Shown one piece after another: positions 1,383 through 40,986 of a DNA stretch of 49,756 nucleotides. The notes beneath the pieces were generated by a model. The model did not search any database, had not been told where the DNA came from, and saw nothing but the letters and a program-made list of their open reading frames with translations. The first letter of the stretch is position 1, and the number at the start of each line of letters is the position of its first letter. This DNA is from Welwitschia mirabilis (lineage: Eukaryota), in NCBI GenBank assembly GCA_051453625.1, contig JBOZIK010000001.1, positions 36,082,080-36,131,835 on the forward strand. Direction: 5' to 3'. The position numbers and the translations under genes are program-made.

Positions 1383-2459
1383 CACGCAAAAGCCCCAAAA
1401 AAGTATGTAATCATTTTTTGACATGAGGCTCATCTTTCTCCTCAAGCCAAAATGGGGCAACTATGATGGTAGTGCTCTCCCCTAAATGCTGCAATAAAGG
1501 CAATGATGGAGGATGGCTCTCAATGAAGGGCGGCACTAAAAAACAAGGTGTACAAAAAGCAAGGCAGCACCCAGAAAAAAACAAATAATAGATCAAACAA
1601 AAGATCATAGATAAAAATGCAAATAGGAGACAATCAGAGATAAAAATGTGCTCACAAAAAAGAGAATGCAAGAGAACAAAGAAGGTATTTCTAGAATAGA
1701 AATAGCAGTGAGAGAAAATGCAAATGATGCATTGGATCAAAAGTAGAAAAAACATGAACACAACATTATTCAGGGGAAGAACAGCAATAGAAACAAAAAT
1801 AGATGATTGGCAACACAGACACAACGATGTTGGTTTTAAGGTTTTTTTTTTAATATGTCTTTTAAATATTTATTTATAATGGTATTTTAATTTTTTTAAA
1901 AAAAGAACCCTTTAAAATTATTTTTTAACATTATAAAAGCTGTAAAATATGGAAGTTATACATTTGAAATACATTGTTTTTCTTTTTTTAAACAATAAAG
2001 ATATTTTTCTTAGATAGGAGTTTTCCTTCAAAAGTATTAATTAGAATTAGAGCATTATCTTATGTTTACATAAAATAACTCTTTTTTTTTTGGGGAGGCC
2101 AAAAACCTTTTTTCGAAATCATGTTCAAATCTAGTCTTTGTCTAGTTTAGACATCAAATTTTGTTATTATTGGCACCCCACTTTGCTCATTTTTCACTCT
2201 CTTAAAATCACCAAAAAACTCACAAAAATTTCTCTATTCCAAAAAAGGAAAAAAAATATTTTGTTAAATTTTTACCATTATTAAATCATAAATTTTAATT
2301 AGATTACAACCTAGATATATGCATTTAAATTTCTTTATAAGCAAAAACCTTAGGCTTAAAATAAAAGAGGGTTGTAGGCGAAATATCTTCCAATTCACAA
2401 TCAAAATTAAATTGCAAGAAAATCTCACAACATTAGGGCCAAGTTCCCAAGCTTTGTTC

Positions 2460-2735
2460 AAACAAAGTTAGTTAATCATAGTTAACTTAGTTAAAGTTAG
2501 TCAAGGCTTTGTCAAAGTTAGCCAAATTTGGTTAGCAACATTATAATAACTTATTCAAACTTGATCAAATAGTCAAGTTTAATTAAACTCAATCAAACTT
2601 AGTTAAAATGAAGTTAGTCAAGGTTATTCAAAGTTAGTCAACCTCAGTTAACCCTAGTCAAACTTAGCCAACTTTAGTTAAACTAGGCTAAGTCATTAAG
2701 TTTAGTTTAAACACATTCAAATCACTATCAAATTG
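2460..2735. repeat. Degenerate array of short (AAA)GTTAGTCAA / AACTTAGT motifs
   Basis: Many imperfect copies, e.g. aaagttagttaa, aaagttagtcaa, aaagttagccaa, aagttagtcaag, ccctagtcaaacttagccaa. Confidence 0.65.
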
Positions 2736-2755
2736 CCAAAATCACCTGTCATCAT

Positions 2756-3800
2756 GTAACATTAGAAGTAATCCACCATTTACGAGAAATAGAAAAATCT
2801 TGTAAATAATTGGGATTAAAATAGAAAGCCAAATATTCATTAACAATCACTATGTAGATGACATAATCATCATAATTTGAACATCCTTCCAATAGGCAAG
2901 AGATATCAAAAATACTATGAATCATTTTGCTAAGGCCATAGAACTTAGGGCTAATTGGAATAAGTCTAGAATTCATATCATTAAAAAACGTCATAGGAGG
3001 AGGGGCGATATTGCTAGAATATTAGATGCTAAAATTAGAGATCTATATAACATCTACCTAGGAGTTCCTCTTAAAAATTATCATAAGTCCCTAACTTAGG
3101 ACTTTATCTTGAAGAAGATTCAGAGCAAATGTAATACTTATCTTAATAAATTTTTTTCTTTAAAAGTCAGGACTATCTTAGCAAATACCTATCTAATTAC
3201 TTCCTTCAGGTACATGGTCTTTATTATTATCCCGCCAAATTTATAATCTAAAAAATCAACAAAATACTAAATGAGTTTATTTGATCTAGAAGTAAGGATA
3301 AAAGTCACATACACCTCTACAAATAAAACTTTATTACTTACCCAAAGGATGCAAAAGAAGGGGGAATTCATAAACTAGAAGACTATTTACTCACAGAGCT
3401 CATAAAATTTTTAAGAAAATGCTCATAAGAGGATAATATTTAAGTGAACTTATCAATTATAAATACCCAAATTGAATCATAATTAGAGGGGAGTCTTACC
3501 TTTAGAATCATCTTTCTAATACCAAGAGATATTTGATTATGCTAGGTACCACCCATTAAGACATAGCTAAATCAATTTTAATTAAGAAGCATGATAAAGA
3601 TAAAGTTAACAAAAGGTTTTGACACTGGTAAATCCCTAACAAGTTAAAGATATTTTACTAGCTCAAGGATCATAATAGACTTCTAATAAAAGATCAATTA
3701 ATCAAATGTAGCATCCAATCTTCTTTTACATGTGTAATCTACTAGTCAAATCAGGAAAATATTCATCATTTCTTTCATCAGTATAAATTGAGTACAGATT
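2756..3800 (+). pseudogene. LINE ORF2 remnant: reverse transcriptase C-terminus plus zf-RVT zinc-binding region
   Basis: YVDDIII at 2851 (YADD motif), ELRANWNKSRI (cf. SGLxxNxxKS), YLGVPL at 3055-3072, FSLKVRTILAN (cf. LSxAGRxxL), FI*S, PKDAKEGGI, IPNKLKIF...HNRLLIKDQL...CVIY...ENIHHFFHQ. Many stops and frameshifts. Confidence 0.88.
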
Positions 3801-5040
3801 TAATGGAATTAATGATAACTTATTATAAGATTAAAAAGCAACTGCAAGATGAATGTAGGATGGAATCTATCTAATAGTCTAGTATATTTAGCATACTACA
3901 ATGGGCTAATTTTAAATTATTCCCCTCTTCCCTTTCCTCTTAATACAATAAGAAGAATTCTATGGTATCACTTGAAAATTTGGATGGTAATAAGGGTCAC
4001 TTCAATACACAAACTATTAAATTTGAGTCTCTTGAGGAATGCTTAGCTCTATGGAATAAAGTGCATGCTTTGGGATAGGAATCCCTACTGCACAATCTAA
4101 AGGGAAGCTTGACTCCAATATTACCCCATTTTATAGATGATGAAGAGGTAATAGAACCATCTTTAGAAGAATACCAATCAAGCTCATCAAAGAATTATTG
4201 GCTTATCTACTAAAAATCCCTATGAAATGGAAGATGATTTCACTTAATTGCAAAAGGAAAAGGAAGGCTTTTTATTTCTTTCTAGGAAGCATCCCTAAAC
4301 TCTCAAGTGAACACATAAGTAGAAAATTGTTTCCACTCCCTTCGGGTTTAGGGGCAGAGCTAGTAGATAGATACTTCATTTAGTTAGGCTACTACTATAA
4401 GCTTTTTGACCTACACTTCATCTTTCTTAAGGTTTTAAACCTAGGCCATCATATTAACCTACCTTACTTCTTCATTGAAATGCTAAAAAGAAAGGATATG
4501 ACTCGAAAATCTAAACTCATAATGATTATTTGGAGAGTAATTTGGGATACTATGATGAGAAGGAAGGTCCCAATACTCCCCATATTATTTCCCATGTCAT
4601 AGGGTAATGACTAAGGCCTAGTAGCCAAATTAAAACAATAAGAATAAGACTAAGAATAACAAAAGTTCACAGAAAAAGCAGGAGAATGAGTCAGGTGGTT
4701 CATAGTTCTAGAGGGAGGTGACTCCACCCTCATCCTAGGAAACTCTTGAATAGATAGAAGTGATTCCACTCCCTAATAAAGATCTTATGACAAAGAAAGA
4801 GGAGGTGCAAGCCTATCTTGATTAGGACTAAGCGAAAACTCTTCCAAAAAAGTCAAAAATCCTTAGGTCTAGCAAGGAGACAATATCTCAAAATGAAATG
4901 AACTCCAATATAAAGGAAGAAAATCAAGTAGCTCAAGATGACATTGGTATGGAGCAAGTAAGAAGGGAGAACCTATTTACTATTATTTAATTTTTAAAGA
5001 AATATCCTTTCCTAATTCTTAGCATACTCATAGAGCTTTT

Positions 5041-5178
5041 TTCAGTGCCATCAAATCAAGCTTTTATAAGAAGGTGCTGAGACTCCATCCTAACAAAAAC
5101 AAAGTAGGAGTGAAGGAGTTTAAAGAGATGAACCAAGATTTCAAGATCATGATGGATGAAATTAATCAACTTCTAATA
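5041..5178 (+). pseudogene. DnaJ/Hsp40 J-domain-like segment at the 3' end of the LINE coding region
   Basis: Frame +1 translation FSAIKSSFYKKVLRLHPNKNKVGVKEFKEMNQDFKIMMDEINQLLI matches the J-domain helix II-loop-helix III pattern IKKAYRKLALKxHPDKN..x.xxFKEINEAYEVLSD. HPN at 5086-5094 is one G>A change from HPD. Confidence 0.7.
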
Positions 5179-5559
5179 TAACACCATCATAGTCACTTAT
5201 TCCCTAGCTATAGGAAATATTAATCTGCTTGTTTTCTCATATTTTAGTTTAGTTCTTGTCTAATTTTTTTATTATTTGCATTAGTCATATGAATGAAACA
5301 TATTCATCCTTGTTTTTATTGTACATGCCTTCTATACTTATTTTAGGACTATTTGCATGGATACTTTGATGCCTAATTTTATTGTAGTCAATTCTACTTG
5401 TATTTTCCTACAAATGGGTACTTTCACCCCTATTTTGTAATTACTTCTTTCTAATATAATTTTTTTTTCCTTATTAAAAAAAACTATGCATGATTAGAAT
5501 TTCATTATAAGTCCATACCCATTAGTTGCCTCTAAATAGGTATGGATGTCCACATGATG

Positions 5560-6885
5560 CATAAACTATGTGTGACTAAGTGAATTATCAATTTTGATGT
5601 ACTTTTAATGATAATTATAGCAAAGATATTTATTATGATAATAGCATGTGTTTCTATGGCTACAATTAGCCTCTTTGATTACATGAATGAGGACATGTCT
5701 TCATGTAAGACATTAAGAATGACTAATTGAGATGTGTAGTGAGATTCTAACTATTAAGTTTTATGATATTATTTTTTATTCTAACCTTATGCAAAATCTC
5801 TTTCTTAGGTCATGACTTTTATAACTTCAAAATGGATACCATTAGTTATACATGTTTCATGTTTATCTAGTGGCTTACTATTTTCTATTTACTAATAATA
5901 CATTATTATATTTATATTTATTCCTCAACCTTGGAGTAAGGCCCTTTTGAAAAGTGATATAACTATTACTGATTCCAATGTATCACAAAAAGTCCACAAC
6001 CATGCTACTACACATTAATGATAATATAATCACTATATTGACATTATTTCTTCATTAGATATGAGATTATAGGTGATTTCCTATAATAATTATAGTTATT
6101 TTCATGAAGGTTAATAAAAAGAAAGAGTTAAAGGCTTTGTTCATAATCCTAATGTGTATTTAATTTGTATGCTTTATTTAATAATGTAAATTAATAATTG
6201 ACTTTCATGATTATGTTAGTGAGAAGGGGTTCCTACCTAGGACACTGAGTGTAACTAATGAAGTTATTTATTTTGATATACTTTAATGATTATTATGGTA
6301 AATATATTAATTATGATAGTAGCATTTGTTTTTATGCTCATGAGTGACCTTTATGGTTGTGTTGTGGGGATGAGCTCCACATGGCACATTGATCACGATT
6401 GTTAGAGATCTATGATGAGGTTTTTACTATTAAACTTTATAATATTTTTTATAATTCTAACCTTATGAAAATAATTTTCTCAAGTAATAGCTCTCATAGT
6501 TTTAAAATTGATGTCATCAGTTACTTATCTTACATGTTCATTTATTGGCTTATTAATTTTCATTTACTAATAATATGTTATATTATTTATATTTTTCTCT
6601 TAACCTTAAGGTAAGTCAATATTAGAGTGTGATATCATTAACACTAATCTCCATCTACTAAACTAAAAATCCTCCATAGAATATCTAAGGCCATGCTATT
6701 ATATGATGATGATAACATAATTACTATGCTAACATCATTTCTCTTTTAAGCATGAAATTATGAGTGTTTTCTTATAATAATTATAGTAATTATGCAAGAA
6801 TATTAATGAATGGTAATGTTTAAAAGTTTTACTTATAATCCTAAGGTGTATTTTATTCTTATGATTTATTGATTAATGTAATTTT
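5560..6885. repeat. Diverged direct tandem duplication, two units, period ~680-690 bp
   Basis: Matching anchors: attttgatgtacttttaatgataattat (5591) vs attttgatatactttaatgattattat (6270); ttctaaccttatg in both units; ataatcctaatgtgtattt (~6144) vs ataatcctaaggtgtattt (~6835). Confidence 0.8.
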
Positions 6886-7729
6886 ATAGAAAATGGCCTT
6901 TAAAGATATATGTTTGTACTTACGATTAGAAGAATAGATAGATTAAAATAATAATTAGATAATAATTTTAATGAACAATTTAGTTAATATGACCATTTAG
7001 AACTAATTGATTAGTCACTTAGGTATTATATGTATAGTAGTATTCTTTCTTAATCTTGATTCTTTCATAAAAGTTGAACATAATTCTTATGATTGAATGG
7101 TTTTTATGCTAATCACTTAGGTAAAATTTTAAATTATATGTATTCTTAGGGGATTTATTAAGTTACATATTATGGATTCTTCTAATTTTTTATAAATTAA
7201 TTTTTATGGTTCTGATAAATAATCTTCATCTCTTGCTTAAGTCTTTTAAATTTCTTTCTCTTTGCTTCTTTAGTTCATAGATCTTTCCTTACTTCTAGAA
7301 TTAAGTTAGTGCCTTATTGTTCCTTTAGATTATTAAGTTCCATTTGATATACTAAGAGTTTAAATATTTTCCTTGAATCTCCACATAATAAAGAAAGCAT
7401 TACATACCTTAATAACTAACTTGTTTAAAATAGATTTTATACTACAAATTTATTTATTCAAACTTCCTTTATTATTTCATCTACAGTCTCATTAAAAACT
7501 ATGAGATCTTTTTGTTAAGTAATTTACCTAATAGTTTCATTAGTTTTATATACTATTTTTGTAATTTTTTTTTGCAAATATGTATGGCTTCTTACTTCTA
7601 TTCATTAGTTCTATCTTCATCATAGTGAATTTTTATAGTTTCTTATTCATTTTAATCAAAAATTATGAGGTCTGTATGCTTTTATTCCCATAACAATTTT
7701 ATCTCTTATTTAGTCTCTCAAATTCAATT

Positions 7730-8974
7730 TGTTGCATTATCAAATTATATGTATCTGATAGGGTATTTTAAGTAGTTTTGTAAGACATTAGACAGGTATG
7801 TTAAGTTTCAATGATAATGGAGAGCTAAGGAAAATGTTATAAAAACATGCAATATTCATTACATTTGATAGCATTTAAAGCAATGTATAATACTTTTTAT
7901 ATGAAGCAATAATCTTGTAATCAAAGAGATTAATCTAATATAAGAAATACTTTACATAAATCCATCATCCCCCTAATCATCCAAACAACTATGTGAACAA
8001 CATAACTACTTAAGCTGAGGATGATGCTTACTAGATTAATCTTATAGTTGATGTAGAACTTGCATGATATGGCATCATCTCCTATGATGTTCAAATGACC
8101 AGTAGGATGATACCTAAAAATAATGCTTCACCAGAATTCACCAAACTGTACATCTTCTTACATATCTATTAGAGTTTTTAGTGCATTTATTAGTGCTTGA
8201 TGATTTTAGAGTTTGCTTTGTAATAAATACCTCATTTTTCCATGACTCCATTTTGACCTTTATTTGTAATGGAAATTCTTATGATAGGAGATTGAATGGC
8301 TAGAGATCCATTCATTATTATTATAGAGAGACATCTTCCTTGGTATTGAGCTATGTATCCTTTATTAAGGTTTTGTTACTTTGTAACACGGATGTTGGTT
8401 CTCTTTTAATCAAACCTCTATTTTTCTTTTTATATTTTCTATTTTGTGCATGTCCCTTATGATTTGTGTTGCTTCAAATTTCATGATAGCTTATTTGGTG
8501 ATATAGATCATGAGGACAACGTTTATTAAGATTGAAATTATTAGCTTAGGTGCATTGCATTTCTTTTCCTAGATTAACTTTGCATTATTTTCATATTTTG
8601 TTTAACATACCTAATAGCTTAGATTGGATTTTTATCTAATGACAACATTTCTTAATTAATCTAGATTATACAATATAAATCTCTATGATAGGTTAATTTG
8701 TTAATTGAATGAAAGTTGCATCTAGAGACTTGTATTTCATTTGCATAGTGTATTTGCATTATTATTTTACATTGTTATTTTATTCTACTCTAAGAAGACA
8801 TGGTGTTTTATTTTTTAAATTAATTCTCTTTCTTTTACCTATGCCTTCAACATGAATATAATATTTGGGTCACTCCAGTCTATATTAGTTTGTTATGTTA
8901 TGTAAAATCTATATATTTGTAATTTATAAAATTTACTTATGGACCTAACATTTGTATAAAAATACATCACAATG
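7730..8974 (+). repeat. Isolated Athila-type LTR (solo-like, no TSD seen)
   Basis: Starts TGTTGCATT and is colinear over its length with 25069-26420 and the reverse complement of 43049-44154. Ends aaatacatcacaatg (cf. aaatacataccacaaca). No PPT upstream and no PBS downstream. Confidence 0.85.
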
Positions 8975-8999
8975 TTCCCTTCATCTGATCATAATGAAT

Positions 9000-10260
9000 T
9001 CCTAGTGGACTATAGGCTCAAGTGTAGGAGAAGAAGAGAAAGGATGCCTAGGATTAGTAAGGAAATAGTGGTTAAGTGATGTCATGATAATCTACATTAT
9101 CTTATCTTCCTGTACTCATATTGTCTCTAAAATACTCACTATCGCATTGTGCTCTATTTGTAGTATGTAGTATTGTATATCCACTAACTACTCCTTAGTT
9201 TACTATACTTTTCTATTAACTATCTAGATCATCTACTCTAATGTAGAGATGCCTCAGTCTACAATCTCTCTAATAGTCTCTAGGGTCTATACAAGAGGTT
9301 CTAAATCTACTCTAGTAAAGTGCCAACCATAGGTTTCTGAACCTAAGATCTCTCTGTCTCTCCTAATACCTAGGTACCCATCTCCTATAGGTAATGAGCT
9401 GAAGCCTATATGTGCATGCATCACTGTTCTTTTACAAGATATAGTATACTAAAGTATCTAAAAATGGCTGAGAGGAGTTATAGATGTCTTAGAGTCTGAA
9501 GTTATTAAGCCTTTACCATATACCTGAGTCTCTTCCATATGAATGTGGGTAAGTCCATCTACTCACCCTACTTGAATAATATTAGTATCTATAAATATAC
9601 CATCATAGCATGGCTATTATAAAAGAATGGACTAATGTTATGAATCAGGCCTCTGTGCAAAATCCAGTAGGTAGGAGTCAATTGTGTCACCAAAACACCT
9701 CATTTATCCAGAGTCAGATCTACCGGTATAACTAGTGCAGTGCCATATGTATGGTGCTCCTCTATCCTATTAGCTGAATGTATATGAATGCTCCTAATAC
9801 CACTAAGATTTGTTACTTCTATAATATGGTTTGAAAGGATGATAATCTCATGGCCCTGAATCATAACTATAATCATATCTATGAGCTAGCCATAGGCATC
9901 AAGATGATACTTCATATGCATGGTGTCATAAAACCCCCTAATCTCAAACACATAATATGTCCCCCATGCATCTAAGGTCTACAGGAGATATAAATCTATT
10001 AATTACTAGTTCACCTATACTCATGTAGCTTATGAAGTTATCAAATTACCTTCTAACACAAATGGTCATGATTTGAATAGTCAAAAATCAAGCATGTCGA
10101 GGTGGAGGATAGACTAACTTTACTCACTCAATCTATAGTGATGTTAATGGGTCCATCTCCTACTCAATAACCTTGGCCTCTATCTTGACCTATCTAGCTC
10201 TACATGTGTATGAAGTACTCAATCATAAATACATGATACATCACATAAGATTAGGTAAAT
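9000..10260 (-). pseudogene. Athila env-like extra ORF remnant (copy 1)
   Basis: Homologous to 23290-24535. Reads LRHL*LLSAIFRYFSI and the coiled-coil GISTLE*MI*IVNRKV**TKE*LVD. Boundaries are approximate. Confidence 0.65.
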
Positions 10261-12329
10261 ATAGCTAAATATGTTACATGGATGTTTAAAATGACATCAT
10301 AATCTAGTTTAAAACATATAAAAATTGTGAAAATATGTCTTGTCTCATACATCCCGTATTGTCTAATTATGTAAAGAAAAACTTGAAATAAGTAAAAAAG
10401 TTAAAACATGTATTTTATGTAGGCCCCACATAAAGTGGAAAAATGAAAATCCTGAAAGGTTTACTACATTTTGATTTATTATTTGGAAGAAAACAAGGTT
10501 TAAAGTGAAAAACCTAGTTCTACCTCATAAAGTGCACACTTCATTATAACTTTTAAAATATGTAGCAAAAATTAGATCTGTAAGTTCCTAATCAAAGAGA
10601 TTGAAAAACTAAATAAAATATGTGGAAAATACACAATGAAAGATTCACAAATAACAAAAAATTTTTTTAAAATAAGGGAGAGAAAAACATACCTCATTTT
10701 GAAGAATTTACTAAAATCTAAAAATCTGGTGGATGAATTTAATGGGGATAAGTTCCAGTACATTGGCAGGAAGTATGAGTACTTTTGTCTATCAAGAAAA
10801 CCAATAAAAATAAGAGAAAATGAAAGAAAAATAAGGAAAAAAAGTCACACCATGATTTTATTACACTATCATTCGATCACATCATCTAGATAACAGCCCT
10901 AGGACGACTATAAGAAAAAATCCTAATGTCATTTCTAGTGTTGTCTAATTGACAACGTGGATAATGGAACTTTGAAAAAATTCTGAAAAAATAAAAACAT
11001 CAGTTACACAAGTTAAGCTTAGAAGTATGAAGGTATCAAAATGTATCAGAAAACATGAAAAATAGGAAATTGTGAAAAGTCATGATAAATGAAAATGAGA
11101 AGAAAAATGTAAAAGAATTAAAAGATAGGGTAATGAAAAATGAACTAAGGAGGATGAAAGCTATTAAAGAAAATTGAAAAATATGTATGAAATAATAAAT
11201 AAACTTAAAATATGTATAACTCCAAAAGACTCAAAGGAAACTCATAAAAATCATGAAGAATAAAATACAATTATTTGATTAAAATGCTAAAAGAAAATTA
11301 ACTTGTTATTGAAAGAAATAACATAAATAACGATAAGGAAACTATTGAATAATAAGGTCTCAAATGTTGATGAAAAAATATGGAAATGACTTTGAAATGA
11401 TAAAATAAAGAATCAAATAAAAGCATAATGAGAATGAACACAAGTAATACAAGGAACATGAATAAGATAGCTTTCCTACCATAAATTCTAACCTAGCAAA
11501 CTCCCGTAGAAGACATCATAAATCCACCTAAGTAAAAATGCATAATAAAAGATATAGACTCCATAAAGCTCCATTTGATAAGGAAGTAATTGTAACAATA
11601 TTAAATATTAAATGCTCAGAATAATAAATGATAAAATCAAAAGCTATTCAAAAATGAACTTATTTACTTACACCCCAAAACACACCTGAATCCTCAAAAG
11701 TAAAATGATCATGTACGAATGTTAAAAGTTTAGGAAATAAGCAATGCTTCTGATGATACTAAGAACACCACTGATCCCATAGCCTCAAAGTTTTATTACT
11801 ACTTTTCATGATGAGGGAAATGCATCCACAATCATAGAAGTTAAGAGGGCCAACTAATCCTCCAGTGAATTTTCTGTAACATGGCTAAAGGTTTCTTTTG
11901 AAAAAATTTACCCTAGTATGATAGAATGTTATGGTGAATATGTATTCTAGCATAGATATAATAGATCATGGTCATATCCTTCCTCTTTTTTTTTTTTTTT
12001 GATTTAATATAAATAATTCCTACATGATCATACACTCAAAAAGATAAAGGTGAATAACTAAGATGAAAGACAGAAAAGAACATACCTAAATAACCAAAGA
12101 CCTTACACTATTAGGGAAAAAAGTAAAAGAACAAAGGCATCTACCTTTAAAGTAAAATTCATAGACATGTGAATGTTTTAAGATTAAGTCAACCTAATCT
12201 TATCACTATAAAAATACCCAAGTATAAATACTAAATATGGAAACTTCATAAAGTAAGCACATAAGTCAAGTTTAAAAGATGATCAAGTGACATTATAACA
12301 TCCACTAAAGGAATAAGCTAAGAGAGAAT

Positions 12330-13445
12330 TTAGAAAATAATAGAATGGAAGTCCTCCTCATTGAGGAGAACCTCCAAAACAATTATTCTATAATGTTCAA
12401 AGTTGTATTAAAAGGTTTTTCATATATTTTCAACTTTTGACTATTAACTTTCTGAATCTCCTAAATTAGAAATCTCAAAAGAGCCATTAAAATTTACTTT
12501 CTCTATAAGATAAGGATCTAATCATTTATATGTCAACTTGTTATGGAAAATATGTATTGTAGTATTATCTAAAAGGATAAGTTAACCATGTTTAAACTTT
12601 ATATGAAGTAACTTGCTATCATGTTTAAACTTAGCTTGGGCTTTATGAATTAGTTGACAATGTATAACATGAGTATGTTATTCATCTAAGTGATGTAGTT
12701 AAGCTAATATATGTTTAAGATTTTAATGAAGGTCTAAATATTAAATTGATAAGAAGATTGATAAGAGTTATAACACATATCAACAGGTAAAATACAAACT
12801 TTTTTGTATATAAGTTCATAAAGTGAAAAATGAATAGAATTATACCAAGTAGTATGGTAATTCCAAAGACCAAAGAATGTTGTTAAACTTATAAGTTCAA
12901 GATTTATTATTAACAAATATAAGTTTTTATAGCATTTTCTTTATTTATTTATTTGCATTTTCAACTTAACCATTAGTTTATAGATGATAATCATAAGCTA
13001 CTCTATGTTCAATTCCAATGGATAAAAGAGGTTTCCTAAAAAGTTAATTAATAAAATGAGTTTTTTAATCACTAATAATAATAATCCTTGGGAAACCAAA
13101 ATATTGAAAAATATGAGTTCTAAGAAAAGTACAAATAGTTTAGGTGTTATTTATAGAAGTAGGAATAGCCTTAACTCATTTAGTAACATAACCAATAGCC
13201 ACTAAAATATAGTTATTATCATTAGAATGTGGTTTAATAGGGTCTATGAAATTAATTTCCCAATAATTAAAAAGTTCACATTTAAAAATAGGTTTAAAGA
13301 GCATCTCTTAAGAACAAATAAGGCTACCATAACATTGGCAAGCATCGTACCTTCTAGTAAAATCAAAAGAATCCTTAAGAAACTATGCTAATAAAAACTA
13401 GACTTAATAATTTTTATAGTTATTTTTTATCCACTAAAATGTCCT
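12330..13445 (-). pseudogene. Ty3/Gypsy integrase remnant
   Basis: The reverse complement matches the 20110-21183 integrase (FY.., IISD..THF, YHL*TNG*, C-terminal LEVLLNEEDFH). Stop at ~12330. Confidence 0.8.
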
Positions 13446-13545
13446 NNNNNNNNNNNNNNNNNNNNNNNNNNNNNNNNNNNNNNNNNNNNNNNNNNNNNNN
13501 NNNNNNNNNNNNNNNNNNNNNNNNNNNNNNNNNNNNNNNNNNNNN

Positions 13546-14137
13546 AATGTTTGGTTCAACTTAATTAAAATTGTTTTTTCATTTTTATATCTTTTGTTAT
13601 GTGTATCTCCCTTATGGGTTATGTTACATATGATTTTGTGACAGCTACATCTAAGATATAGATTAGAAGGACAAGCTTTATTAATGTTGACATTGTTATT
13701 TAGGTATGTTGCATTTCATTTTCTAGATTAACTTTTCATTATTTTTATATTCGTTTAGCATACCTAATAGATTAGGTTGATCTTGATCTGGTGATAGATT
13801 TCCTTGATTGATCTAGGTTATATAAGACCAATCTCCATGATAAGTTGATTTTGTAATCAAATAGAAGTTGCATCTAGAATAGAACTTGCATACCATTTAC
13901 ATAGTGTATTTATTTGCATTGTTATTTTTCATTATTATTATTCCACTTTAANNNNNNNNNNNNNNNNNNNNNNNNNNNNNNNNNNNNNNNNNNNNNNNNN
14001 NNNNNNNNNNNNNNNNNNNNNNNNNNNNNNNNNNNNNNNNNNNNNNNNNNNNNNNNNNNNNNNNNNNNNNNNNNNNNNNNNNNNNNNNNNNNNNNNNNNN
14101 NNNNNNNNNNNNNNNNNNNNAAATACATACCACAACA
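13546..14137 (+). repeat. 5' LTR (3' part) of the Athila-like element
   Basis: Matches 25745-26420 and ends cacaaCA at 14137, followed by a PBS. Contains the gap 13952-14120. Confidence 0.85.
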
Positions 14138-14158
14138 TCTTGGTGTTATTATCAAAGA
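14138..14158 (+). promoter_or_regulatory. Primer-binding site, decayed tRNA-Asp type (copy 1)
   Basis: tcttggtgttattatcaaaga is derivable from the Athila PBS TTTGGCGCCGTTGCCGGGGA mainly by C>T/G>A changes and lies directly after the LTR CA end. Confidence 0.75.
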
Positions 14159-14569
14159 AGGTTACTTGGAGATAAGAGATTTTCATTGCTTAGATAAGTG
14201 CTTTGGATTTTGGTTTAGGTATTTGTCTATAGTGGCATTGGATTATTATACTAGAAATATAGATCTGATGATATCTTTCCTTAATTGATCTAGGTTATAT
14301 AGGACAAATCTCCATGATAGGTTGATTTTGTAATTAGATAGAAGTTGTTCTTAGAATAGAACTTGCATCCCATTTACATAGTATGATTAGCATGCTATGT
14401 GTGTTTATTTGCATTTTTATATTTCATTACTATTATTCTACTTTAAGGTTACATAAGTGTTTTGTTTTAAAATTAATTCTCTTTCTTCTCATATGTGCTT
14501 TTGATGGAATTACAACATTTGAGTCACTCCCATTCATATTAGTGTATTTTATAAATACACACTACAACA

Positions 14570-14590
14570 TCTTAGCATCATTATCAAGGA
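14570..14590 (+). promoter_or_regulatory. Primer-binding site, decayed tRNA-Asp type (copy 2)
   Basis: tcttagcatcattatcaagga follows a second LTR end (actacaaCA at 14569). Confidence 0.72.
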
Positions 14591-15289
14591 AGGTTGCTTG
14601 GAGTTCAATGATTATCATTGCTTAGATAAGTGCTTTGGATTTTGATTTAGGTATTTGTCTACAGTAGCATTGTATTCTTACACTAGAAATGTAGGTTTTT
14701 CTTTCCACTTTTTTTTATTTTGCATTCCCAAAATAATGCCTTATTATCCTCCTATCGTCTAGATAACCTATGGCAATAATAACTTGTGAAACCTAGGTTT
14801 ATTTTCTTAAGAATGATTATTTTTATCTTATCATTTCATTAGTCACCCAAATGACTTATCGGATGATGAGCAGCTTTTATTCGATGTTTTTTCCCCCCTA
14901 TTTTAGGTTTTTTATGTCTACTATTGTTTAGGTACATTACCTAAAATGACCATACAAATAATGCTTCTAGAAAAAGAACTAAGCATGTTGGTATATAGTA
15001 AACTTTGATAAAAAGATAAAATATCAAAGAGAGTAACTATTGATTAAAGAAAATATTTAAGAAGTTTTGATCAACTATGAACTTAGCCTAGGTATGCATA
15101 CCCCAGGTATGCAAAATATTCCAAGAATTGAGCAAGAAGATTTTTATTCATTTATTATTTCTAAATTTAATTTTTTTAAAAAAATTTAAAAGAAAATTTA
15201 GAAGGAAGTCATTTTATTATAATTTTGAATTCATCACAAAATCAGAAATAGGTTAATTCACTTAATTCCCTTATTTTGATCAAAACTTG

Positions 15290-18200
15290 TATAATTCCCA
15301 TAAATCCAAATGCTAATGTCACCCTTAAAGAAATGATTTCAAACAAGAAATGTAAAATTCAAAACTCTTTAACCTATCTTCTGGAGATGATGTCAAGTTA
15401 AGAAATTTAAATGCTTACCTTATTTATACTAGAGAAAACAATATAGCTAGCATCAAATACCTGGTTCTTACTTCTAGAAATGGTTAAAAAAATTAGTGAT
15501 TGTACTTACAGGGTTATTTTCCTCATTACTTTAAAAAGAAAATCAAAATTATGGTTAAGAACTATTTCGCATAAAATCTTAAAACATAGAATCAAGTTTA
15601 AGAAGCATTTCTAAAATAATTTATGAGTAAAACAATAATAAGAAAAAGAAAAAAAAGAGGTGATAAATTTTTAATAACAACTCAATGAAGATTATGCCTC
15701 CAATTATAAAAATTTTTTTATTGCTATACATTTTAATTATATAGATGCATTCACTCAAGAAGAATTAGTAGACCACGTCTATAGTGGAATTAAGAGTGAA
15801 ACTAAACAACCTAAGTATTTTTGATGTGGAGTAAATTTGATGAATCTCACTTTAGAAAATGCATGGATGTTATTGAAAGAACTATTAAAAGTAAGTCAAA
15901 CATGACCTAAACCAATACCTAAAGAAACTTGTACTATAAGTCAAATTATAAAATATCTAAAAGAAGTAAAACAAGAAAAGGAGGAATTAAAGATAGAAAA
16001 AGAACCAACAATTTTCATTAAGGATTTCACAACAATATTATAAAAATACACTCAAATGATTTTAGATACAAAACTAAAAATCAAAAAGAGTGTGGTTCCA
16101 ACTTGTGTTTGATTTGAAGACAGCTATCATGTAATAAAAAAGTATCCTTTATTACCTACTTACAAAGCAAATATTTATGAGTGGATGTGTGCATTCAACT
16201 AAAAGTATTCAAACTTTAGAACCCAAAATAAAAATTAAAATTAAAACCAATTTCAACTTATGATGAATGGATAACCAAATTCTTAATCTTATAAAAACAA
16301 ATTTAATATCTTTTAAGCAAATCATCTAAATTTTTAACCATTTAGAAATAAATTTAAGAATGCTAGCTTTTAAATAAACAACTCAAAATTCTAATCAAAA
16401 AATTCAAATTATCAAGCAATGACATCAAATCCACAAAACTAAGATGATTCACTTCTAAATTCCATTGATGAATTAAGAAAATATTAAGAAAAGACAAATT
16501 CAAACATTAAAATCCTTGTTAATATTCTTTAATAAACTATGCTTACAAATCAAAGACCACAAGAATCACTTGTAACACAACCTTTATCAAATTCTAATTA
16601 AGTAAGAAAATATTGTAATGTTGTGATTAGAAGTGGAAATGAAACAATACCTCTTACCTATAAGGCTTTAACTTTGTAAAATAATAATAATGATGATGAA
16701 GAAGAGATTATTGAATTTTAGAAAATCATTCCATTCTCCTTTAAGCAATAAGTTTAATAATAAAAATTCTTCTCAAGATAAAGATAAAAAACCTGCTATT
16801 CCTTGGCTTGATAGATTAAATACCAATCCTATCTTTGATGATCATCTTAAAGCCTTAATGCAAAATGTGAGCATAAATTTACTTTTTAAATTCTTGTAAA
16901 AAATCCTAAATATTTTAAGTTGTGGAAAGATCTAATTAAGAGAAAATAAAAACAAACCATACCTAGTAAAGCCTTCCTAGCCTAATTTATAACCAACTTA
17001 GTTTTTCAAAAATCTCTAAAATTTAAGGATCTAAGGGTAGCAATAGTAAGTGTTACAGTAGAAGGAAGAAAAAGAATAAGAAAAGCCTTAATTAATATAG
17101 GATCAAGTTTTAACATTATTCCTTTACACATTTGTCAATGACTTGATTTGAAAGTAGCATTGAATCTACATGAATTATCTTAAAATTGGAAGATACATCG
17201 ATGATAAAACCTTTAAAATAAAAGATTTGATGATTCAAATTAAGAAAGCATTCTATCGAATAGATGTGATTTTGATTGAAGTTAAGCATAACAAAGGTTA
17301 TTCACTACTTGCAGTTAGAGAATTTTGTGCAATAATCTATTATATTATTAAAACAATAACTATAATTATGGAATATCACTTAAGAAATAAAAAGTTTACA
17401 TTAGAGTTTTTCATGCTACTAAAAAATATGTAGGTGATGAATTAAATATTGAAGGAGAAATTAAGTCAACTCTATTTTTTCAGCATCATCCACTTGAAAA
17501 AAGATGGTTAATGCTTTATGAGCTTATCTTGTTCAATGATTCACTTAGAGTAGAAAACTTGAAGTCTTTTGATGATGATCAACTCAACTATGATCATTTA
17601 GGTATTAACCATTTTAATTAGAATATTAAAGAAACTAAAACTATAAATTAATGAAAACTAAAAATAACTGAGATTTTATATTTTGAGGGATATCATCCAT
17701 CCTAGTCATCTAGATGATAGTCAATGTTAATAAGAAATTAATGAAAACTAAAAATATGAAATTAAATCTAAAACCTCTATCTAGTGGACTAAAATATATC
17801 TTTTTGTGTGATGATCAAAACAAACCTTTAATAATAAATGAGAATATTTCTCCTTAATAAGAATTTATTTTAATTTCACTTTTGAATACTAAGATTAATG
17901 CATTTACTTAGTCCCATAAAGATTTAATAGCCCTTCCTACTATCATTATTCAACATAAAATCTACCTTGTGGATAATGCAAAATCTATTAGGCAACTCTA
18001 ACATCGACTAAATCTAGCCCTTAAATAACTTGTAAAGGATAAAATCATTAAATTAATGGATGCTGAAATTATTTATGCCATATCCTATAGTGAGTGGATT
18101 AGCCCTTTGATGGTAGTACCTAAGAAAAATGAAAAGTAAAGAATGTGCATTGATTTAGAAAATTATATAAAGTAACTAAGAAATATCATATCCTTTACCT

Positions 18201-21183
18201 TTTCTTAACTAGATAATTGATAAAATCCAAGAATATGCCTTTCGGACTTTGTAATGCTCTTGGTGCTTTTTAGCATGTAATGATAGGTATATTTTCTAAT
18301 ATGTTAGAGGATTCAATTGAAATTTTTATGGATGACTTCTTAATCTATAGTGAAAACTTTGAACAAATCTTAGAAAGGTTAGAGAAAGTCTTAAAAAAAT
18401 GTATTAATAGTGGTTTACATTTAAGTTGGAAGAAGAGTTTCTTTTTAGTTAATAATGGAATTATCTTAGGTTATCACATTTCTAATAAAGGAATTAGAAT
18501 GGACCTTGAAAAAGTAAGCATAATTAAAAACCTAACTTCTCTAATAAATGTAAAACAAGTTTGATTTTTCCTTGGTCATTGTGATTTTTATCATCATTTN
18601 NNNNNNNNNNNNNNNNNNNNNNNNNNNNNNNNNNNNNNNNNNNNNNNNNNNNNNNNNNNNNNNNNNNNNNNNNNNNNNNNNNNNNNNNNNNNNNNNNNNN
18701 NNNNNNNNNNNNNNNNNNNNNNNNNNNNNNNNNNNNNNNNNNNNNNNNNNNNNNNNNNNNNNNNNNNNNNNNNNNNNNNNNNNNNNNNNNNNNNNNNNNN
18801 NNNNNNNNNNNNNNNNNNNNNNNNNNNNNNNNNNNNNNNNNNNNNNNNNNNNNNNNNNNNNNNNNNNNNNNNNNNNNNNNNNNNNNNNNNNNNNNNNNNN
18901 NNNNNNNNNNNNNNNNNNNNNNNNNNNNNNNNNNNNNNNNNNNNNNNNNNNNNNNNNNNNNNNNNNNNNNNNNNNNNNNNNNNNNNNNNNNNNNNNNNNN
19001 NNNNNNNNNNNNNNNNNNNNNNNNNNNNNNNNNNNNNNNNNNNNNNNNNNNNNNNNNNNNNNNNNNNNNNNNNNNNNNNNNNNNNNNNNNNNNNNNNNNN
19101 NNNNNNNNNNNNNNNNNNNNNNNNNNNNNNNNNNNNNNNNNNNNNNNNNNNNNNNNNNNNNNNNNNNNNNNNNNNNNNNNNNNNNNNNNNNNNNNNNNNN
19201 NNNNNNNNNNNNNNNNNNNNTAAGACAAGTTCAATCTTTCCTTGGTCATTGTGATTTTTATCATCATTTTATTTAGGATTATACTAAAATTTATAAATCC
19301 CTTTTCTTTTTACTTGAAAAAGAAGCTAAATTTAAATGGAATGAGTCATGTCATCTTGCCTTGAAATACTTAAAGATAAAATCTCTTCTATATCTATTGT
19401 AATAAGACCCAATTAGAATAAAGATTTTAAGTTAATGTGTGATGCTAGTAATATTATCATGGTTGGAGTTCTTAGATAAAAGTATATAAATTATTTTAAT
19501 ATTATATCTTATTATAACAAATCTTTATCTAAAGATAAATTGAATTATACTACTGCTAAGAAAGAAATATTAGCAATAATGTTTTACCTAAATACACTTA
19601 GATACTATCTTTTAGGATTTGATACAAATTTTTATACTGATCATGCAGCTATTAGATACTCTATGATCAAGAAAGATTCTAGTGGTAGACTAATTAAATG
19701 GATCATTCTCATATATTAATTTAATCTTACCATCATTAATAAAATAGGAAATCGTAATAGTGTAGTAGATCATTTATCACATCTTTCTTATTTTTTTAAC
19801 GATCTTATGATTAATGACTCTTTTCCAGATGAACAACCTTTTGCTATATCTTTTACTCATCCTTCTCCTTGATATGTTGATGTAGCTAATTATTTTGTTA
19901 CCATGAAAATACCAAAACATTAGACTCATAATTAAATAAAATACTTTTTTTCCATAGAATAAACTATTATGAATGGATAAATCCACATCTTTACCATAGG
20001 AGAAAAGACCAAATCTTGAGAAAATGTATGAATAAATGAAAAAAATTAGACATCCTTTATCTTTGTCATGGTGATGTTTATTAATGTTATTATATTGGAT
20101 AGAAAACAACAATAAAAGTCCTTCATTTTGGTTTTTATTGGCCTAGTACTTTTTAGGACTCTTTGAATTTCTAGAAGGTGTGATGCTTACCAACATTATG
20201 GTAGCCTTATTTGTTCTCATGAGATACTCCTTAAACTTATTCTTGAATGTAAACCTTTTAATTATTATGGAATTAATTTTATAGGCACTATTAAACCACA
20301 TTCTAATAATAAGAACTACATTTTAATATCTGTTGATTATGTTACTAAATGGGTTAAAGCTATTTTTACTTTTATGAATAATGCCTGAACTATTTGTACT
20401 TTTGTTAGAACTTTTGGTTTTCATAAGATTATCATTAGTGACTAAGGAACTCACTTTATTAATCAACTTTTTAAAAAACCTCTTTTATCCATTAGAATTA
20501 AACATAGAGTAGCTTGTACTTATCATCCACAAATTAATGGTCAAGCTAAATATGCAAATAGAAAAATAAAGAAAACACTATAAAAACTTATTTCTATTAA
20601 TAATAAATATTAGGCTTCTAAGATTAATAATATGTTTTAGGCTTACCATAATACTTGGCATAATTTTATTGATTTTCCACCTTATGAACTTGTATATTAA
20701 AAAGTTTGTATTTTACAAGTTGATCTGTGTTATAACTCTTATCATTTTTTAATAAACTTAATCTTGTAAACCTTTATGAAAATATTAAAAATATATTAGC
20801 TCAACTTAATCACCTAGATAAAAAAATGTACACATGCTATACATTATCAACTAATTCATAAAGCCCAAACTAATTTCAAATACGATAGAAAGTTACTTCA
20901 TAAAAAGTTTGAACCTAGTTAATTTGTTCTTTTATATAATTCTAGATTACATCTTTTACATAACAAGTTGGCCTCTAAATGGTTAGATTCTTATCTTATA
21001 GAGAAAGTACATTTTAATGGCTCCATTGAGATTTCTGACTTAAACACTAAGGAGATTTAAAAAGTTAATGAATAAAAGTTAAAAATATATGAAAAACCTT
21101 TTGATGTAATCTTAAACATGATAGAAGCAATTCTTTTGGAGGTTCCCCTTGATGGGGAGGACTTCCTCCCTACCATTATCTAA
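15290..21183 (+). pseudogene. Athila-like gag-pol polyprotein remnant (Gag, aspartic protease, RT, RNase H, integrase)
   Basis: Gag KSKLWLRTI..KT*NQV*EAFL (~15540) and TLENAWMLL; VIRSG (~16625); protease KALINIGSSFNIIP (~17082); LKPLSSGLKYIFL; RT EWISPLMVVPKK, MPFGLCNA, IEIFMDDF (ORF 18280-18564); RH LMCDASN, NYTTAKKE, YTDHAAIRY; INT FGFYWP, VDYVTKWVKA, IISD*GTHF, YHPQINGQ; stop 21181-21183. The start is approximate. Confidence 0.92.
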
Positions 21184-35100: not shown

Positions 35101-36127
35101 ATGCCAAGGCAAAAGATTCCAATTTCAAGAAAGAATAGAGGCAAAGATAACAAAGGAGAGTTAGTTTTTTTGACTCCTAGGGCAAAGGTGATGTGGACTT
35201 AAAGTTTTAATAAGAAGCCTCTTACTCTAAAGAGGGTTATTCTGCATGATACATTCAAGCATTATTTTAATATTTTGCCTAGGGTTTAAAGAGTTAGGTT
35301 GGACATACATTCTAAACCCTCATACTCATGATCTGGTAAATTTAGTTGACATGTTTTACTATAATGATTCTTATTAGTATAAGCAAAATCAGTTTGTATC
35401 AAATTTGTATGGTATTGATATTGAGATTGATTCTAAAATGATTTCCAATACTACTACATTTCCACTAGACTATGTAGAATATGTGCACATTACTTCAGTT
35501 TCAATTTTAGATAGTTTAGTTTCCAGAGATGAACTCAATGAATTTTTGTGTGAAAGACAAGAGGGATGGAGAACTACCATTCTGACTCAAATTTTGAGGC
35601 AAATTTACAAGGTACTTTTTCACATCATCTTCAACAATATCATTCCAAAGCTTGGCCACATGGATGAAGTGTCTGTTATGTATGTGTATGTCATGTATTA
35701 TTCTGCTCAAAGTATCTAAATTAACTTACCTTAGTTGATTTTGTAAAACATGACTTCCTACACATCTATGAGTTTAGTAGCACTACCATACAGAGGTCTC
35801 ATTACTAAGATGTATCATGATCAGGTAGCTCTACCAAAAGTCAAAGATGAAATTCTAAAACTGCTAAAGCCATTTGATAAATCCTCACTTATCCGAATGA
35901 AAATTATTGAAGGCTCTCCTGTAGCTCCACCTTCTTCTCCATCTAGGCAATTCAAGCACATACGACCTAGTGAGTCTTTAACAGGTACCTCCTCAACTAA
36001 AAAATAGCTCAAATGGATTTCATCTCATCTATCCAAGATAAAGAAGGCTCTTATTGATTTTGGATTGGAGGTGGCATTCACCTCTTGTAGTAGTAGTAGA
36101 AGTGGTAACATGATGGAATCTGGCTAA
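35101..36127 (+). pseudogene. SIRE extra (env-like) ORF copy 1, putative plant transposon protein (Transposase_32-like) domain
   Basis: MPRQK...ELGW...MFYYN...LYGIDIEI...LFHIIFNNIIPKLGHMDEVS...INLP...ALPYRGLITK. Corresponds to ORF fragments 35020-35202, 35405-35719 and 35750-36007. Confidence 0.8.
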
Positions 36128-39964: not shown

Positions 39965-40986
39965 AAGTAGAGGATTCTACTTTCACGAAAGTACAGAGGC
40001 AAAGATAAGGAATGAGAGCTAGTTTTTGTGACTCCTAGGGCAAAGGCTATGTGGACTTAAAGTTTTAATAAAAAGCCTTTTACTCTAGAGAGGGTTATTC
40101 AACATGATAATTTCAAGAATTATTTCAATATTTTGCTTAGGGTAGAAGAGTTAGATTGAACATATACTCTCAACACTCATGTTTATGCTGTCATAAATTT
40201 AGTTTGCATGTTTTACTATAGTGGTTCTTATCAGTGTGAGCAGAATCAATTTGTATTAAATTTGTATGGTATTGATATTGATATTAAACTTAAAATAATT
40301 TCTAATGCTACTAGGTTTTCACTAGACTGTGTAGAATATGTGCGTATTACTTTAGTTTTAGTATTAGATAGTCTAGTTTTAAGAGATAAACTCAACGAGG
40401 TTTTTTATGAAAGACAAGAGGCATGGAGAACAACCATTTCCACTCACATTTTAAATTTAATATACAAGGTACCTTTTCATATTATTTCTAGCAATCTTAT
40501 TCCAAAGCTCAACCACATGGATGAAGTATCCCCTCTGAGTGTGTATGTCATGTATTATTATGCTCAAAGTATCCAACTCAACTTACTTTAATTGATTTTA
40601 TAAAAATAATTGGCTAAACATCAATGAGTCAAGCAGCATTACCATATGGCAGTCTCATTACTAAAACATGTTATGGCTAGGCAACTCTATCAAAACTAAA
40701 AGATGAAATTTTGAAACTGCCAAAGCCATTTGATAAGTCCTAACTTATCCAAATGAAAATTTTATAAGGCCCCACTCTTGTAGCTCTACCTTCTTCTCCT
40801 ACCAAATGGTTCAAGTGCATGTGGCATGGTGAGTCTTCAAGGGGTACCTCATCAACTAAAAAATGGCTTAAATGGATTTATTCTCAGCCATATAAGATAA
40901 AAAAGGCACTCATTGATTTTGGATTGGAGGTGGCATCCACCTCTTATAGGAGCAGTAGCAGTGATCACATGATGAAATCCAACTAA
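39965..40986 (+). pseudogene. SIRE extra ORF copy 3
   Basis: Starts at about codon 2 after the gap, includes ORF 40208-40591 and ALPYGSLITK, stop 40984-40986. Confidence 0.82.

Follow-up and report, generated by a model that had tools for sequence, protein, structure and literature searches.

Host sequence is carried by long interspersed nuclear elements (LINEs) in 3′ transductions and in chimeras formed by template switching, in which a host-like coding fragment lies just upstream of the retroposon 3′ end and is copied along with it. The J-domains of DnaJ/Hsp40 proteins (Pfam PF00226; class A and B, for example C. elegans dnj-12 and human DNAJA1) combine a basic helix II, an H-P-x-K-N loop and a helix III of the FKE type; in these chaperones the domain is NH2-terminal and its catalytic loop contains Asp. 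The ORF2 (second open reading frame) product of plant L1 LINEs comprises a reverse transcriptase (RT) and a zf-RVT zinc finger, some with an added COOH-terminal RNase H (Smyshlyaev et al. 2013, as cited in PMC4686597), and that article describes an extra COOH-terminal SF1 helicase domain in insect R1 LINEs, after a spacer that exceeds 300 amino acids. We describe here a locus in a stretch of 49,756 nucleotides (nt) of Welwitschia mirabilis DNA (GCA_051453625.1, contig JBOZIK010000001.1, positions 36,082,080 to 36,131,835 of the forward strand; this whole stretch is referred to as the window), in which a decayed, 5′-truncated L1-type LINE remnant is followed on the same strand by a J-domain–like block. 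The original prediction, made from the DNA letters, held that the ORF2 of this LINE ended in a J-domain, a layout with a foreign domain at the far COOH-terminal end past a spacer, as in R1 elements; in those R1 elements, however, the domain is complete in several species and belongs to an intact ORF, whereas the window block is partial and its continuity with ORF2 and its function are putative. We tentatively read the block as a dead, J-domain–derived passenger that a retroposon family carries in its 3′ terminal part, and we give this reading a little less than an even chance.

The J-domain–like open reading frame (ORF) extends over positions 5023–5181 of the plus strand, from stop to stop, encodes 52 amino acids and ends in TAA. 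It comprises a putative helix II, an HPN loop (5086–5094) and a helix III, and it contains the peptide that had originally been noticed at 5041–5178. The Pfam profile check that had been proposed for this segment returned DnaJ at E = 3.7e-6, with a score of 27.4 bits that was 0.4 below the curated (gathering) cut-off of 27.8; given that the copy is decayed, we regard homology as still likely after such a near miss. The 39 matched residues (ORF residues 8–46, nt 5044–5160) correspond to profile positions 15–56 of 63, and the match was recovered at E = 3.3e-4 when the whole 933-residue frame was searched. The sole non-J family among the Pfam matches of the block was an overlapping DUF4028, and all four NCBIfam matches were J-domain families in the same register (E = 0.008–0.057), bacterial DnaJ models among them. 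Named DnaJ/Hsp40 proteins made up 19 of the 21 sequences listed at E <= 10 in a phmmer search of PDB sequences, the best being C. elegans dnj-12 (2och_A; E = 3.1e-5, gapless). The block also aligned in register and without gaps to the J-domain of DNAJA1, with a similarly short loop. An ESM Atlas search with the ORF gave a recognition value of 2901 and a top match of 0.93, which lay within a DnaJ-tagged set of 20 of the 30 matches; the cluster heading this set has DnaJ in 12% of its members and serves as a lead only.

The block differs from J-domain chaperones in that it lies in dead repeat DNA and in that Asn takes the place of Asp in the loop. The original coordinates for the loop were exact, with AAC at 5092–5094, and the J-likeness stood; the tripeptide is encoded as CAT CCT AAC and reads His-Pro-Asn in the window copy, rather than His-Pro-Asp. 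Derivation of AAC from GAC by a G-to-A change is possible, and position 5092 was not among the 40 variant positions listed out of 1083 in the contig comparison described below. Helices I and IV had no DnaJ profile match in the ORF, and helix I, already described at the outset as poorly recognizable, could not be recognized. AlphaFold2, run with the single sequence, modeled the ORF as a helix-loop-helix with the loop at HPNKN (mean predicted local distance difference test score, pLDDT, 79), and in the model of a 71-residue read-through of 4966–5178, helix II was preceded by a further short helix at IYYYLIF (pLDDT 62.5). Foldseek searches of PDB returned nothing for either model, and a wide VIA-align search returned only generic helical hairpins (best Z 7.5) and singled out no J-domain. 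A two-helix hairpin is not discriminating in a structure search.

These properties bear on whether the resemblance arose by chance, that is, from a Lys/Asn/Phe-rich ORF within a non-coding repeat in DNA of 29% G+C (13,937 of 48,082 called bases of the window, which also contains N gaps). We consider this unlikely, while giving it a serious hearing: the score is below the cut-off and covers 39 residues only, the defining Asp is missing, the structure searches found hairpins of a generic kind, and the match was chosen by eye in a large scan, with a true search space far greater than one ORF. Openness of the frame was assessed by a dynamic-programming read-through, in which a stop costs 1 and a frameshift 2, and was compared with shuffled sequences and background windows. 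The J-like ORF had a cost of 1 versus 2.4 ± 1.0 in shuffles, a value equaled by 26% of background windows, and is therefore not significantly open, which would fit a chance resemblance. The E value over the entire frame speaks against chance, however, as do the gapless alignment with a loop length like that of class A J-domains, the confinement of the Pfam (bar DUF4028) and NCBIfam matches to J-domain families, and the agreement of the language-model search. As a composition control, three minus frames of 2701–5500 and three plus frames each of 430–2700 and 5501–15501 were searched, and these nine frames of the same AT-rich DNA (15,066 residues) yielded no Pfam family, nor did the third plus frame of 2703–5498 (932 residues). 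The J-likeness is therefore probably real homology, with good though not full confidence, even though it is partial; any capacity of the block to stimulate the ATPase of Hsp70 is putative.

To place the block in its repeat context, contigs of two DNA runs (with two organism labels, X1 and X2) and reads of two RNA runs were compared with positions 2300–5600 at a likeness of at least 80%. Near-identical contigs had a depth of approximately 5 to 6, and the flanking bin 5519–5600 a depth of 5.3 and 5.5, which provides the single-copy reference. Single positions within the stretch had a much greater depth (X1 and X2, respectively): 108.5 and 65.5 at 2991, 297.3 and 179.5 at 3393, 163.7 and 112.4 at 4111, and 59 and 61.7 at 5025. 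At 5149, within the J-like block, it was 106.7 and 105.9, or about 20 single-copy equivalents; the program warns that summed contig depth is not a copy number, and these values mean tens of single-copy equivalents. The same alternative letter at 4947 was found in 20 contigs of X1 and 26 of X2, and transitions dominated the differences between copies. Diverged contigs matched 5152–5483 with 64 other letters in 332, and beyond 5483 they continued for 537 letters in one case (record 6) and 48 in another (record 15) with sequence unlike the window; the match of a third (record 7) stopped at 5461. Because the likeness of the diverged contigs ceases at 5461–5483, the end of the repeat unit is marked by the A8 run (5476–5483), and positions 5182–5483 constitute its non-coding 3′ part on the plus strand. 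The LINE poly(A) originally expected there is thus only eight A's, but it is indeed where the diverged copies stop matching. The J-like block is not private to the window copy and is repeated in diverged copies, so that an outcome in which only this copy carried it, which the original prediction had named as contrary to it, did not occur; nor did the other one that it had named, a missing J-domain profile match.

The same comparison bears on the reading that the block is an exon in decay, from a host J-protein gene or pseudogene located next to the L1 remnant by coincidence, that it was not borne by a transposon, and that the additional copies are a gene or pseudogene family. The similarity begins at helix II, as it might at an exon border, and the match of one diverged copy (record 5) begins at 5025. 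An intron-like GT...AG pair, seen by eye as GTAAG...TTTTTTCAG bracketing 4949–5045, would precede the J exon. However, likeness in the diverged copies extends about 300 nt beyond the stop and ends sharply at the A run, which is retroposon-like, and the depth at 5149 exceeds what would be expected for J-protein paralogues. The RNA runs, about a quarter of each of which was read, offer the exon no help either: the reads that fell on the compared stretch numbered no more than 16 and 32, lay mostly in the zinc-finger region, overlapped the stretch only in part and were in no case at least 95% alike, so that neither run gave a sign that the window copy is transcribed. A look-up of RNA records listed none that contains the sequence. 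We consider a host exon very improbable.

The L1-type remnant upstream of the block begins with the COOH-terminal part of a reverse transcriptase at 2756–3250 (plus strand). Its translation in the frame of 2701 contains a YVDD box (2851–2862) followed downstream by a YLGVPL-type motif and other RT-like motifs. In PDB sequence searches the remnant gave a weak colinear match to residues 685–802 of human LINE-1 ORF2p (E = 0.34–1.9), and five of the seven sequences listed were L1 ORF2p or RT, whereas a Pfam search gave no match to RVT_1. The read-through cost of 2756–3250 was 5 versus 9.0 ± 1.8 in shuffles. The zinc finger, as expected of an L1 LINE, follows the RT: Pfam PF13966 (zf-RVT) matched nt 3581–3781 in the frame of 2702 (E = 4.1e-6, 27.8 bits versus a cut-off of 27.5, profile positions 11–77 of 85), with stops and frameshifts, and together with the YVDD box it bears out the assignment to an L1-type LINE with zf-RVT. 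The family zf-RVT is a plant family. The surrounding region 3251–3810 had a read-through cost of 11, equal to the 11.0 of shuffled sequence, which indicates that the copy is heavily decayed.

Downstream of the zinc finger, 3811–4143 (plus strand) is a probable ORF2 tail with a broken frame; it matched no Pfam family, and its read-through cost of 4 versus 5.6 ± 1.5 in shuffles was not significant. A W..W..RN-like motif was noted by eye, without tool support, at about 3950–4020. The window copy has in common with plant L1-clade LINEs the YVDD box, zf-RVT on the same strand and a candidate A-rich tail, and it differs from them in being 5′-truncated, without endonuclease or ORF1, and in the lack of any RNase H profile match by Pfam in the remnant region. 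An order of motifs by eye (DG..., AE... and N..A..LAK-like, which we took to be those of RNase H) had suggested such a domain at 4076–4640, a candidate that was dropped when Pfam and PDB searches gave no support. The distance from the zinc finger to the unit end is about 1.7 kb, presumably longer than in plant L1 elements generally. No word of at least 8 nt was common to 2600–2900 and 5440–5600, as a target-site duplication would be, and blastn and tblastx found no further copies within the window.

At its 5′ truncation point the remnant adjoins a satellite-like run at 2400–2750, in which TTAGTCAAAG-type units recur every 21 nt. This run had the top summed depth of the compared stretch, up to 3,393 in X1 (bin 2633–2743), and the next bin, 2744–2854, which includes the start of the remnant, had a summed depth of 3,427 in X2.

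Between the zinc finger and the unit end the original prediction had seen about 1.4 kb of coding-like sequence, with TAA and TAG stops as former Gln codons decayed by C-to-T changes. The three frames of 3800–5180 contain 36, 38 and 40 stops in approximately 460 codons, or 7.8–8.7 per 100 codons, compared with 7.7 expected from base composition, which is the random level; only 4144–4602 is significantly open. The share of TAA and TAG among these stops (69–74%, versus 76% predicted by composition) was uninformative with regard to Gln codons. Positions 4603–5022 form a spacer on the plus strand without a reading-frame signal, with a read-through cost of 8 versus 7.1 ± 1.6 in shuffles and no Pfam family. 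The proposal that ORF2 ran on into a working J-domain found no positive support in this copy, given the silent spacer, the HPN loop, the missing helix I and a candidate L1 tail in between, and a fused ORF2–J frame is not supported. The negative frame result is itself weak, because the zf-RVT region also equals shuffled sequence and decay alone can therefore erase a frame.

The candidate tail is an A-rich stretch at 4625–4686 (plus strand), which by its composition would be the A-rich tail of a LINE after decay or else a linker rich in Lys and Asn. At 58–62% A, it exceeds every other 60-nt stretch of 3800–5483 in A content and belongs to the top 1.1% of 60-nt windows over the whole window, and summed contig depth was lowest around it (9–60). 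It could be the L1's own 3′ tail, lying about 0.85 kb past the zinc finger, which we take to be roughly where an L1 3′ end is expected; the remnant has two candidate 3′ ends, this stretch and the A8 run at 5476–5483. Head-to-tail insertion of a second retroposon, at the A-rich tail of an older one, is a familiar pattern. We see about even odds between a terminal unit that belongs to the same L1 family, as its long 3′ part, and one that is a second, 5′-truncated retroposon placed head-to-tail at 4625–4686.

The reading that we favor would accommodate either case. A decayed, 5′-truncated L1-type copy (RT COOH-terminus plus zf-RVT) would occupy 2756 to about 4100–4680, and the last 0.5–0.8 kb of a dispersed non-LTR (long terminal repeat)–type unit would follow on the same strand and end at 5483. 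This terminal unit would hold a coding relic of a J-domain with helix II, an HPD loop that now reads HPN, and helix III. Through 3′ transduction, or because the RT switched templates, the 3′ part of the retroposon may have captured part of the gene or mRNA for a host J-protein, and this piece may then have been propagated as the retroposon was copied. Whereas J-likeness, the L1 remnant, the repetition of the block and the unit end at 5483 were observed directly, we infer both the mechanism of capture and the status of the block as a passenger rather than a functional domain. Partial similarity, limited to profile positions 15–56 and with an HPN loop, is as expected for a captured fragment. By comparison with the transduction and template-switch chimeras mentioned above, capture here is our deduction and the donor gene is putative.

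Several observations weigh against a passenger. The stop of the ORF falls exactly at the J-domain end and is followed by the 3′ non-coding part and the A run, a layout expected of a true COOH-terminal domain. The block is also among the better conserved parts of the compared stretch, with a summed depth of 414 and 317 in the bin 5075–5185 compared with 9–75 in 4520–4963, as would fit selection on a coding domain. Given that the zf-RVT region is itself no better than random, a closed spacer is compatible with a former ORF, and AAC could be a G-to-A–decayed GAC in DNA so ridden with transitions. Finally, other copies show collinear joints from 3830/3835 to 4074/4118, 4138/4146 to 4344/4361, 4249 to 4347 and 4758 to 5025, which hint at one unit from zf-RVT through the J-like block; these are among the 15 joints listed out of 428, with shorter sides of 21–33 letters, and are flagged as unreliable.

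The layout, the depth and, weakly, the joints would also favor a LINE-encoded domain, with active masters, either of this family or of a second, tail-only family, having encoded a working J-domain of which the window copy is a decayed example (HPD to HPN by G to A). The J-like ORF closes the last coding-like block, with about 300 nt of non-coding sequence from there to the unit end; many diverged copies contain the block; and the extra helix modeled at IYYYLIF lies upstream of helix II. Precedent is afforded by the R1 helicase and the plant L1 RNase H (PMC4686597). The domain would have been located at the COOH-terminus of ORF2 or in an extra 3′ ORF, past a long and variable spacer, and would have recruited host Hsp70 to the protein or its ribonucleoprotein (RNP), a placement and role that we regard as doubtful. 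Against this stand the lack of frame continuity in the window copy, the candidate L1 tail at 4625–4686 between the LINE part and the block, Asn in place of Asp, the absence of profile matches for helices I and IV, and the failure of Foldseek and VIA-align to pick out J-domains.

Protein relatives did not favor a LINE-encoded domain either. A word-indexed protein search with 4144–5181 (stops as X) gave 709 candidates, none at E <= 0.01, and similar searches of longer proteins gave 127 candidates and no relative for the RT piece 2782–3246 and two candidates and no relative for the J-like ORF; a word index is weak on decayed sequence. A full HMMER scan of 1.84 billion protein representatives with 4144–5181 yielded no relative. 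Its single match (P0001, E = 1.3e-4), consisting of nine short stretches on a repetitive Gly/Arg-rich protein, was judged spurious. Neither the word-indexed searches nor the HMMER scan returned a protein with the J-like block or one that combines it with RT. No report of a LINE or RT with a J-domain was found in the literature searched, which lay mostly outside subscription journals and was taken without supplements; the suspicion that the architecture is undescribed agrees with this result, which also counts against its existence. That an active lineage of LINEs encoded a working J-domain therefore seems to us improbable. Overall, the observation behind the original prediction was partly confirmed, and its interpretation is partly supported.

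The open frame at 4144–4602 (plus strand), upstream of the spacer, consists of 79 and 72 codons separated by a single stop, for 152 codons in all. Its read-through cost was 2 versus 7.1 ± 1.7 in shuffles; of 200 shuffles none, and of 170 background windows one, had a cost as low. It matched no Pfam family, and ESM Atlas gave a recognition value of 1234 and no match. The only PDB match, of 4396–4560 to the von Willebrand factor type A (vWA) domain of anthrax toxin receptor 1 (E = 0.016–0.043), was judged to be due to chance, with no Pfam VWA match. The frame is among the most open in the window and has a G+C content of 34%, compared with 28–30% in the L1 part; given this higher value, the frame may postdate the L1 remnant or be foreign to it.

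Other features of the window include a two-copy tandem duplication directly past the end of the repeat unit (about 5600–6890, plus strand), with a period of about 675–692 nt and copies that are 70–85% alike. Further along, two open frames of 113 and 143 amino acids on the plus strand (35378–35719 and 40160–40591) gave E values of 8.6e-6 and 3.3e-5 against Pfam Transposase_32 ("putative plant transposon protein"), with scores under the 45-bit cut-off in each case, and a third open stretch begins near 34082; Transposase_32, too, is a plant family. At 18524–19309, frames that enter a large N gap are FLGHCDFYHHFI-like on either side of it, which may reflect a Ty3/gypsy polyprotein motif. An identical 37-nt sequence at 280–316 and 417–453 flanks a 100-N gap and looks like an assembly or gap-filling artifact.

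In Arabidopsis, silencing of methylated transposons depends on a J-protein, SILENZIO, which acts with MBD5/6 (PMC8616336). By analogy, a J module in a LINE might possibly interfere with J-protein–dependent silencing of this kind, as an alternative to a role in recruiting Hsp70, by which the reverse transcriptase or its RNP would be folded or activated. Either role presupposes that a plant L1-type lineage gained a J-domain from a host and retained it as a working module, at the ORF2 COOH-terminus or in a small 3′ ORF, with the window copy as its fossil, which we hold to be rather unlikely. If it were true, it would provide a retrotransposon that carries its own Hsp70-recruiting module and a direct handle on the service of chaperones to reverse transcriptases. 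We know of no other retrotransposon with such a module, and polyomavirus T antigens would be its parallel.

As the evidence stands, the locus is ordinary decayed repeat DNA that contains what is likely a gene fragment acquired by capture, as commonly befalls host sequence close to the 3′ ends of retroposons, and its chief value is as a pointer to a repeat family that merits a look at the level of its consensus.

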